Position numbers and translations under genes: made by a program. DNA of 12,182 nt from a virus (Duplodnaviria > Heunggongvirae > Uroviricota > Caudoviricetes), in the IMG/VR virus record IMGVR_UViG_2526164690_000021, one strand, 5' to 3'. The notes beneath the pieces are model-generated. The model saw only the letters and a program-made list of their open reading frames with translations, did not search any database and had not been told where the DNA came from. This document shows, one piece after another, positions 4,749 through 5,829 of this stretch (the stretch's first letter is position 1; the number at the start of each line of letters is the position of its first letter).

Positions 4749-4790
4749 AATCTACAATTAAAACTGTTTTGTGTCAACAGTTTTTAATTG
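4749..4790 (-). promoter_or_regulatory. PL-like promoter with overlapping operator (inverted repeat AAAACTGT-N9-ACAGTTTT)
   Basis: On the minus strand: -35 TTGACA (plus coords 4772-4777), 17-bp spacer, -10 TAGATT (4749-4754). Inverted repeat arms 4760-4767 and 4777-4784, extended palindrome 4755-4790. Near-identical to the module at 5786-5829. Confidence 0.55.
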
Positions 4791-4801
4791 TTGTTTTGGG
4801 C

Positions 4802-4824
4802 AAAAAAATCCCTCGAAAGAGGGA
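4802..4824 (-). terminator. Intrinsic terminator of the repressor-antitoxin-toxin operon
   Basis: Minus-strand RNA: UCCCUC-UUUC-GAGGGA (stem 4809-4814 / 4819-4824, GAAA-type tetraloop) followed by U7 (4802-4808); 19 nt after the toxin stop. Confidence 0.6.
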
Positions 4825-4842
4825 GTATGAAAATTGTTCAAC

Positions 4843-5130
4843 TCAGATAGAGAAGGGAAATTGTCGCCGAGAATGTGTCACGCTTACAATCTCAATGCTT
4901 GAAGCAGCTACTCTGTACAGGATTATGTAGTTAGGGTGGGTCACGATCTCTCTCAATCCAGAAACCCGTTCGCTTGGTGGATATAAGTACGGATGCTCAG
5001 ATAGAGGTAATACCGATGTTTCAATGCGTATTTTTAGTCTACGTGCTGCCGGTGGGTTCTCCTTGGCGATGTAAGTTATGATCTGGCGCAAATCATCGCG
5101 AGCAGACGGTAGCCATAAAATGGGTAACAT
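4843..5130 (-). CDS. parE2: ParE/RelE-family type II toxin (95 aa), ParE2-like
   Basis: Translation MLPILWLPSARDDLRQIITYIAKENPPAARR...EHPYLYPPSERVSGLREIVTHPNYIILYRV...SVTHSRRQFP matches the ParE fold pattern; start overlaps the antitoxin stop (TAATG at 5128-5132). Symbol is a family-level call from memory. Confidence 0.85.
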   Translation of the reverse strand: MLPILWLPSARDDLRQIITYIAKENPPAARRLKIRIETSVLPLSEHPYLYPPSERVSGLREIVTHPNYIILYRVAASSIEIVSVTHSRRQFPFSI

Positions 5131-5321
5131 TACTCGCTCTTGTTAGTTACAGCAATTTGAGCAATAAGATTTTCCATTTCAGCCATTACCTCGTCATGTG
5201 GAATTGCGGGGCGAGTGTCTGCAAGGCTTGACGTTACTTTAGTGCGCAACCATTCGTTGTAACTGTTTTCTTGTTCGGTAGTTTCGAATTCTGAAACTAT
5301 CGGAGAAAGGGCTGTACCCAT
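5130..5321 (-). CDS. paaA2: PaaA2-like antitoxin (63 aa)
   Basis: Translation MGTALSPIVSEFETTEQENSYNEWLRTKVTSSLADTRPAIPHDEV... resembles the PaaA2 antitoxin of the prophage paaR2-paaA2-parE2 module as I recall it; GAGGAG 7 nt upstream of ATG 5321-5319. Confidence 0.8.
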   Translation of the reverse strand: MGTALSPIVSEFETTEQENSYNEWLRTKVTSSLADTRPAIPHDEVMAEMENLIAQIAVTNKSE

Positions 5322-5348
5322 GGCATAACTCCTCTTCTTGTACTGTGG

Positions 5349-5750
5349 TCACGCCCGGCGGCTTTTTTGTGCCGCCAGCCACCTAGCAATGGTTTCTTCC
5401 ATTGATTTTTTCTTGTCTTTGATTTCTTGAAGCATTTTTTCTTGGTCTTCCTCAGGAAACGCACTAAAAGCTTGGAGCAGTTCGCGTTGGCGAGGACCAA
5501 TTTTCATCGTGTCAGGGGTGAAAATTTGCTCACACTCTTCAGGAGGCAATAAAAACCAATGCAATGGATGCCCTGAAACCTCAACCAGTTTATCCAAACT
5601 TGAGGCTTTAGGTGTAGCCTTACCGCTGACCCATTGTTGAACAGTTTGTTGTGTCACACCAATTCTACGGGCAAGCTCAGCCTGGCTCCATCCAGTTTCC
5701 TGAAGAAGCTTGCTGATTCTGTACATAGATACTTCTAGGGCGCTCATCAT
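5349..5750 (-). CDS. paaR2: HTH (XRE/Cro-CI type) repressor, RacR/PaaR2-like (133 aa)
   Basis: HTH segment WSQAELARRIGVTQQTVQQWVSGK; divergent from the ydaS-like gene; first gene of a three-gene operon with the antitoxin and toxin. The AT-rich stretch before the ATG lacks an SD, so the mRNA may be leaderless. Confidence 0.85.
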   Translation of the reverse strand: MMSALEVSMYRISKLLQETGWSQAELARRIGVTQQTVQQWVSGKATPKASSLDKLVEVSGHPLHWFLLPPEECEQIFTPDTMKIGPRQRELLQAFSAFPEEDQEKMLQEIKDKKKSMEETIARWLAAQKSRRA

Positions 5751-5785
5751 TATTCAATTTTACAGGTAAATACTGTTAAAAGCAT

Positions 5786-5829
5786 CACAATAAAAAACTG
5801 TTGATTGCATACAGTTTTTATTGTAGGCT
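5786..5829 (+). promoter_or_regulatory. PR-like promoter with overlapping operator (AAAACTGT-N9-ACAGTTTT) in the repressor/ydaS divergent region
   Basis: -35 TTGATT (5801-5806), 17-bp spacer, -10 TAGGCT (5824-5829). Inverted repeat arms 5794-5801 and 5811-5818. Architecture duplicates the module at 4749-4790 in the opposite orientation. Confidence 0.55.

Follow-up and report, generated by a model that had tools for sequence, protein, structure and literature searches.

Putative paired 434-like operators on both sides of a repressor operon in an Escherichia coli prophage: a probable CP-933M-type paralogue of the CP-933P switch

We describe here the putative immunity region of a 12,182-nucleotide stretch of Caudoviricetes DNA (IMG/VR record IMGVR_UViG_2526164690_000021; "the window" means this whole stretch), which is a lambdoid prophage of Shiga toxin-producing Escherichia coli (STEC), the closest locus (L001) being STEC prophage DNA that is 99.5% identical to it. 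Two near-identical promoter modules in opposite orientation flank an operon for a 133-aa repressor, an antitoxin and a toxin, and we consider it quite probable that they are the OL/PL and OR/PR of a lambdoid immunity region, of a CP-933M type that is paralogous to the switch of prophage CP-933P (Sp12) of E. coli O157:H7, where the paaR2-paaA2-parE2 / ydaS-ydaT region has been studied experimentally (Jurenas et al. 2021, PMC8630535). Judged from its sequence, each module is two adjacent operators like those of phage 434, here called O2 and O1, and conservation in relatives indicates that the feature is almost certainly functional. From left to right, the genes dicB, dicF, ydfC, ydfB and ydfA are read leftward from PL; a terminator follows, then parE, paaA and the repressor gene, read leftward from PRM, and finally OR and PR, from which ydaS (cro), ydaT (cII) and the replication genes are read rightward.

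By direct reading, the minus strand of 4749-4790 is ...AAAAACTG-TTGACA-CAAAACAGTTTTAATTG-TAGATT and the plus strand of 5786-5829 is AAAAAACTG-TTGATT-GCATACAGTTTTTATTG-TAGGCT. A repeat search recovered the same likeness as a 40-nt inverted repeat (4752-4791 against 5787-5826, 83% complementary), each mirror-image module overlapping a sigma-70-like promoter. The palindrome AAAACTGT-N9-ACAGTTTT matches exactly at 4760-4784 and 5794-5818, with no third copy elsewhere in the window even when 3 mismatches are allowed; its expected count is 0.08, and two matches occurred in 0 of 200 dinucleotide shuffles. The twin modules reported in a preliminary description of this DNA are thus borne out. That description also placed the palindrome over the -35 and spacer of each promoter, and there it lies, but it consists of the inner halves of O2 and O1, its N9 being mostly the -35 hexamer, and the conserved unit is a 15-bp ACAR-N7-YTGT site, present twice per module.

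Scanning the window with the pattern ACA[AG]-N6/7-[CT]TGT gave 8 matches against 1.8 expected, 5 of them in the two control regions. Three ACAR-N7-YTGT sites lie inside the 107-bp gap between the repressor and cro genes (5751-5857), and a second cluster, of two sites rather than three, lies at the leftward promoter beyond the repressor operon, an arrangement that is syntenic in 8 loci. The sites and their candidate promoters are:

4754-4767: OL1, the PL-proximal operator, ACAATTAAAACTGT, 14 bp, in the PL spacer and including the first base of the -10 (motif scan)
4777-4791: OL2, ACAGTTTTTAATTGT, 15 bp, abutting the PL -35 and overlapping its first base (motif scan)
5762-5776: OR3, ACAGGTAAATACTGT, in the PRM spacer, its last T common with the PRM -10 (motif scan)
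5787-5801: OR2, ACAATAAAAAACTGT, between both -35 regions (motif scan)
5811-5824: OR1, ACAGTTTTTATTGT, 14 bp, in the PR spacer (motif scan)
4749-4777, minus strand: PL candidate, -35 TTGACA (4777-4772), 17-nt spacer, -10 TAGATT (4754-4749)
5801-5829, plus strand: PR candidate, -35 TTGATT, 17-nt spacer, -10 TAGGCT (direct reading; layout conserved)
5750-5762, minus strand: putative PRM, -10 TAAAAT (5762-5757), 6 nt, then the ATG at 5750

Relative to PRM the centre of OR2 is at about -44, and relative to PR at about -42. At PL, PR and the putative PRM alike, an operator ends in the T that opens the -10 (ATTGTAGATT, ATTGTAGGCT, CCTGTAAAAT), and at PL and PR the last T of O2 is the first T of the -35 hexamer. 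We do not count the extra matches at 2710, 2949 and 8302 as operators, since they have the N6 form, lie within coding sequence and recur as the same sequences at loci with other repressors (L019, L005-L007). A direct repeat (5805-5827 and 5830-5852) was attributed to chance, as loci outside E. coli do not keep it and the ydaS ribosome-binding region makes up its second copy.

Relatives were gathered as repressor homologues from a protein search and their contigs were read, a scan of genome contigs having given only one, from Arsenophonus. The loci examined are all those whose repressor keeps the helix [TAS]QQT[VI]QQW, namely eight loci that amount to seven independent relatives (L012 and L013 are near-duplicates), from Salmonella (80-81% identity), Klebsiella, Pluralibacter, Morganella, two metagenomic contigs and Arsenophonus (48%). 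In all eight, the region between repressor and cro contains three 15-bp ACAR-N7-YTGT sites, at offsets that are identical in most loci, with centres 24 and 25 bp apart, and all but L018 have two OL sites, separated by 23-24 bp, at a promoter that contains TTGAC and lies downstream of the repressor operon; L018 has one, after which its contig ends. The 48.5 kb of relative loci contain 41 sites against 3.2 expected, 37 of them at OR or OL, and this OL/OR pattern is independent of the presence of the toxin-antitoxin (TA) pair. The preliminary description had proposed looking for its motif in related prophages, and the three OR and two OL sites are indeed kept there, in the form of the 15-bp units.

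Column by column, the six loci that align gap-free show no variation in 17 of the 18 columns of ACA/TGT, in 8 of the 21 of the seven inner bases and in 5 of the 19 of the inter-site spacers. Over 78 half-sites, the first three positions are A in 78, C in 77 and A in 77, and position 4 is divided between A (37) and G (41). Among E. coli copies, likewise, the substitutions spare the half-sites and fall in the spacer between operators. Control loci with other recognition helices (Stx-phage CIs, CP-933P-type loci, and QK/QR variants) have no ACAR-N7-YTGT site (six loci) or one (L020 and L024). The Stx-phage CIs were set aside as relatives and used as negative controls, since they share 45-55% of the helix-turn-helix (HTH) but have another helix (SAQSVQYW) and ATCAAG-type operators. 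Conservation in the relatives together with near-absence at other-helix loci identifies the 15-bp site, as far as sequence comparison goes, as the conserved unit.

This bears on the alternative that each promoter has one operator, the 25-bp palindrome itself, with a single repressor dimer over the -35 and spacer, which we consider unlikely. The palindrome is exact at both sites and statistically exceptional, and an inner xTGT-N8/9-ACAx is also found in relatives; its half-site cores, however, are 13-14 bp apart and read away from the dyad, opposite to 434-type docking, in which half-sites 10-11 bp apart read towards the dyad. The 15-bp sites suit such docking, because their half-sites are 10-11 bp apart and face the dyad. 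Further, the outer ACAA/TTGT bases vary no more than the inner ones, the AAAA/TTTT flanks of the palindrome are not conserved in relatives, and OR3 stands alone as a self-contained ACAG-N7-CTGT palindrome, whose neighbour (as with its counterparts in relatives) is at N10 and not N9.

The PL candidate matches the consensus at 10 of 12 positions (consensus scan), and its operator/-35 TTGAC/operator/-10 layout is kept in 8 loci, while the PR candidate (TTGATT-17-TAGGCT) is visible by eye and falls under the threshold of that scan. At the putative PRM there is no good -35 hexamer, and OR2 adjoins the place where one is expected; the -10, a gap of exactly 6 nt and ATGATG are kept in all of the 8 relatives shown except L002, where the gap is 7 nt. 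No Shine-Dalgarno sequence precedes the repressor ATG, and the sequence suggests that the repressor mRNA is apparently leaderless, starting from PRM. An operator beside the PRM -35, as OR2 is, has the geometry that permits lambda CI to activate PRM. In CP-933P, low PaaR2 levels activate PRM933P (PMC8630535), and by analogy PRM would probably be activated by repressor at OR2.

Downstream of PL, the leader has its own conservation:

4568-4748, minus strand: PL leader upstream of ydfA, C-rich, conserved across immunity types

Its C-rich stretch (ACCAACCACCCACCCCGCCCCACAG..., 4600-4742, minus strand) persists in prophages whose repressors differ. The leader was rejected as a structured RNA (it folds worse than shuffles, z = +1.8, with no Rfam match), and it may be a Rho-utilisation-like stretch.

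The repressor combines a 434-like HTH (helix TQQTVQQW) with a PaaR-type C-terminal domain. Its best Protein Data Bank (PDB) match is the phage 434 repressor (E = 3e-5, alignment over the HTH, 2r63/1per), with which it has Q17, Q28, Q29 and Q33 in common (TQQTVQQW against TQQSIEQL). No S24 peptidase (LexA-like) domain was matched in the 133-aa protein by Pfam, so RecA-mediated cleavage is not expected, and no close homologue of the repressor was found in the phage collection. YdaS has the recognition helix AQQTVWQW and is 54% identical to the repressor over 28 HTH residues. Like the window, phage 434 has half-sites ACAA/ACAG that face the dyad and operator centres 22-25 bp apart, and its repressor and Cro have their operators in common, as is predicted for the window; its record gives operators of the form ACAA-N6-TTGT, and its OR3 (ACAGTTTTTCTTGT) is identical to OR1 of the window at 13 of 14 positions. 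The 434 operators are 14 bp (N6), whereas those of the relatives and of nearly all E. coli copies are 15 bp (N7), and only the two O1 sites of the window have the 434 form. The window type also differs in having A or G about equally at position 4, in a repressor without the S24 domain, and in operators placed one step further upstream relative to the -10/-35 hexamers.

In CP-933P, the CI analogue PaaR2, initially known as the regulatory member of a three-component TA system, and the Cro analogue YdaS both footprint the intergenic region, and each represses PR, PRM, and a PL that bears the same -35/-10 and operators; the PaaR2 mRNA is leaderless, the locus is bistable, PaaR2 octamers are reported, and a CP-933M homologue is mentioned (PMC8630535). 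In the EDL933 CP-933P locus (L025) the repressor starts MQKKE, as published. The window resembles this locus in its gene order, divergent repressor and ydaS, apparently leaderless layout, YdaT box, and a leftward PL beyond the TA genes with operators that match those of PR. At the protein level, PaaA (70%), ParE (67%) and YdaT (86%) are close to their CP-933P counterparts, while the repressor aligns with PaaR2 over the C-terminal 97 aa only (42% identity, E = 2e-20), and neither YdaS nor the repressor HTH has any sequence similarity to those of L025. The operators differ too: CP-933P has three OL sites to the window's two, and its repeats (consensus GTTTAGTAA, from comparison with the L025 intergenic region) are absent from the window, which has ACAR-N7-YTGT instead. 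Because HTH, YdaS and operators differ while PaaA, ParE, YdaT and the C-terminal domain match, the window is, by these comparisons, a heteroimmune paralogue of the CP-933P switch, in a classic swap of immunity specificity. Window-type and CP-933P-type loci occur together in the same O157:H7 genomes (e.g. NZ_CP101522), so the two should be heteroimmune. That the window is the CP-933M/Sp4 locus is probable, on the basis of one sentence in PMC8630535 and the name of a neighbouring "ECs1072 family" gene. In another E. coli strain (GF60; L005, 2305-3109), tandem PaaR-type repressor genes stand upstream of paaA-parE, the first paired with CP-933P-type operators and the second (helix TQQSVQRW) without recognisable sites of its own nearby.

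The third regulator of the locus has a separate site:

6107-6124: YdaT box, TTGATTCATGAAAATCAA, exact match, spanning the ydaT start codon

This box, defined by footprinting in CP-933P and Rac (PMC9986795), is identical in the window to the CP-933P OM consensus and one base off the Rac box, which argues that heteroimmune prophages have the CII-like arm in common.

In the mechanism that we propose, the 133-aa repressor would occupy O1 and O2 at both PL and PR and so silence the ydfA-dicF-dicB and ydaS-ydaT-replication operons. The O2 and O1 centres are 24 bp apart, which would allow two repressor dimers to bind cooperatively on one helix face. At OR2 the repressor would probably help the weak PRM, and at OR3 it would shut PRM off; YdaS, with nearly the same recognition helix, would compete for the repressor's sites in the manner of Cro, and YdaT would act through its own box. 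The preliminary description had already proposed a lambda-like switch with one HTH repressor at both modules. The flanking modules agree with a switch, but the features that together give the locus that character, OR3, the divergent PRM and a YdaS with nearly the same recognition helix, had been missed; that one repressor controls both modules is favoured by synteny, by operator conservation in the seven relatives and by the experiments on the CP-933P paralogue, and for the window it is a prediction.

A different division of labour, in which YdaS or a host factor is the main or only reader of the sites and the 133-aa protein is a conventional TA autoregulator, is very unlikely. YdaS does have a QQTV helix as well, and the early description of PaaR2 as a TA regulator would fit. 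However, loci L012-L018 keep the repressor helix and five sites without paaA-parE, so the sites go with repressor and cro rather than with the TA genes, and in CP-933P each of the two proteins binds and is able to repress PR, PRM and PL (PMC8630535). More widely, L012-L018 and L002 have the same repressor, cro and five operators with unrelated genes, or none, in place of paaA-parE; relatives thus keep the switch without the TA pair, which makes paaA-parE an optional cargo of the repressor operon, like lambda rexAB. That the likeness of the modules is a mere remnant of recombination or duplication, with no regulatory role, is extremely improbable: lambdoid prophages are mosaic and this one is probably defective, its replication gene being split in the window, but in seven independent relatives, with repressor identity as low as 48%, the half-sites are kept while the bases inside and between the sites have diverged, as expected of selection on function and not of a recent duplication.

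Several points weigh against the two-operator, two-sided reading of the modules. Binding, repression and bistability have been shown only in CP-933P, and what the window contributes is anatomy, site conservation and homologies. Both O1 sites of the window, at 14 bp, fall one base short of the 15-bp unit, and among the relatives the Morganella OR3 and the Arsenophonus OR2 are degenerate, with matches at 7 of 8 positions each. Adjacent palindromes automatically form an inner one, and the inner CTGT-N9-ACAG may also be read. The repressor resembles that of phage 434 only modestly (E = 3e-5) and has another C-terminal domain, so its dimer geometry is an assumption. We also looked for covariation of helix residues with bases (Q to R/K against position 4 to C), and L020 fits it while L024 and L019 do not. 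At L020 (1316-1378, helix ...QRW) the same architecture is built of ACAC-N7-GTGT sites, and at L024 (2421-2483, helix ...QRW) it has mixed bases at position 4; these changes may reflect natural specificity drift rather than clean covariation.

The O1 length goes together with a wider pattern in the window. Its O1 sites are 14 bp and its PL and PR spacers 17 nt, against 15 bp and 18 nt in near-identical genomes. Among 484 E. coli genomes with the PR module, 1 has it in exactly the form of the window, and for the PL module the figure is 0 of 477. All other genomes have one more A or T in a homopolymer of each module; OL1 in other genomes is 15 bp (ACAATTAAAAACTGT or similar), and OR1 is 15 bp (with a T6 run) in 483 of 484. 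Relative to L001, the window has 1-bp deletions at 4759, 5814, 6583, 7818, 10556 and 11360, all in A/T homopolymers, and a 24-bp deletion at 7890. Because of the deletion at 7818, the replication-initiator gene is broken up into open reading frames (ORFs) at 7168-7920 and 7908-8369, as compared with a single 372-aa coding sequence in L001. The inverted repeat AAAACTGT-N9-ACAGTTTT is unaffected by the homopolymer difference.

The 14-bp O1 sites and 17-nt spacers are probably sequencing errors, by under-calling of homopolymers. They could instead be a rare allele, and the deletions taken together also suggest a decaying prophage as the alternative to homopolymer error; a natural double operator/promoter-up allele, with looser dicB/dicF silencing, is a possibility. 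Were the deletions real, O1 would be a true 14-bp 434-like site and phages of 434 immunity (434, Sf6, HK446 and relatives) could cross-regulate with the prophage, a proposal that we regard as unlikely. If it were true, 434 cI or Cro might bind the prophage PL and PR, which would control dicB, DicF and the ParE operon, or else the resident repressor might give partial immunity against 434-immunity phages.

The genes of the region, with the evidence for each, are:

2747-4567, minus strand: leftward operon, whole
2747-2935, minus strand: dicB (RefSeq annotation of L001)
3121-3172, minus strand: DicF RNA (Rfam DicF, 77 bits)
3881-4270, minus strand: 129-aa ORF of the leftward operon
4282-4410, minus strand: ydfB (RefSeq annotation of the 99.5%-identical L001)
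4412-4567, minus strand: ydfA/DUF1391 (Pfam DUF1391; RefSeq annotation of L001)
4809-4824, minus strand: intrinsic terminator ending the repressor-paaA-parE operon, just before OL (consensus scan)
4843-5130, minus strand: ParE-family toxin (Pfam ParE_toxin, E = 2.9e-17; 67% identical to CP-933P ParE2)
5130-5321, minus strand: PaaA-type antitoxin (Pfam PaaA2, E = 5.6e-19; 70% identical to PaaA2 over 56 aa)
5349-5750, minus strand: CI-analogue repressor, 133 aa (Pfam HTH_3)
5858-6130, plus strand: YdaS-family Cro analogue (Pfam YdaS_toxin)
6114-6539, plus strand: YdaT, CII analogue (PDB 8bt1, YdaT_toxin domain-containing protein, E = 1.4e-82)

The regulator gene is followed immediately by paaA and parE, which are on its strand, and the replication genes lie rightward, beyond ydaS and ydaT. 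The leftward operon had been named YdaF/YdaG in the preliminary description; RefSeq gives ydfA-ydfB-(ydfC position)-dicF-dicB, and those names replace it. PL leads into the DicF small RNA and dicB, and the repressor studied here would thereby be the silencer of two cell-division inhibitors. Near the right end of the window, the IS10 antisense RNA, RNA-OUT, has a full-length match (11547-11616, minus strand, 98.8 bits against a gathering score of 41). The immunity segment was found in 511 of 5426 complete E. coli genomes, about 1 in 11, and O157:H7 or other STEC are the majority among the carriers listed.

Set beside lambda, the window likewise has two operator clusters that flank a repressor operon with accessory genes (rexAB there, paaA-parE here), an apparently leaderless PRM, and OR2 next to the PRM -35 region; proteins and sites differ, and OL and OR are about 1.0 kb apart in the window, where looping between them is a possibility, by analogy with the reported PaaR2 octamers. 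In the Qin prophage of K-12 (dicA/dicC - ydfABC-dicF-dicB), too, a leftward ydfA-dicF-dicB operon is under the control of a CI-like repressor, and in the Rac prophage of K-12 (racR/ydaS/ydaT), ydaS and ydaT are again the Cro and CII analogues. Qin and Rac differ from the window in their repressors and operators and have no TA pair in the repressor operon.

The design is the standard lambdoid two-sided operator, already known and dissected experimentally in a paralogue in 2021, and no new principle is revealed by the switch of the window. What is new is modest: the sequence and count of the operators of this immunity type, the 434-like head on a PaaR scaffold, and the spread of this type through Enterobacterales; in our literature search, the operators of the CP-933M-type locus were not described in any paper. 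The repressor would be a natural example of a 434-like DNA-reading head that is joined to a different oligomerisation domain and reads 15-bp sites, and the difference in operators would explain how this locus and its CP-933P paralogue coexist in one cell. As the region would control the cell-division inhibitors DicB and DicF along with the ParE toxin, its operators would provide a map of how a cryptic prophage is kept silent.

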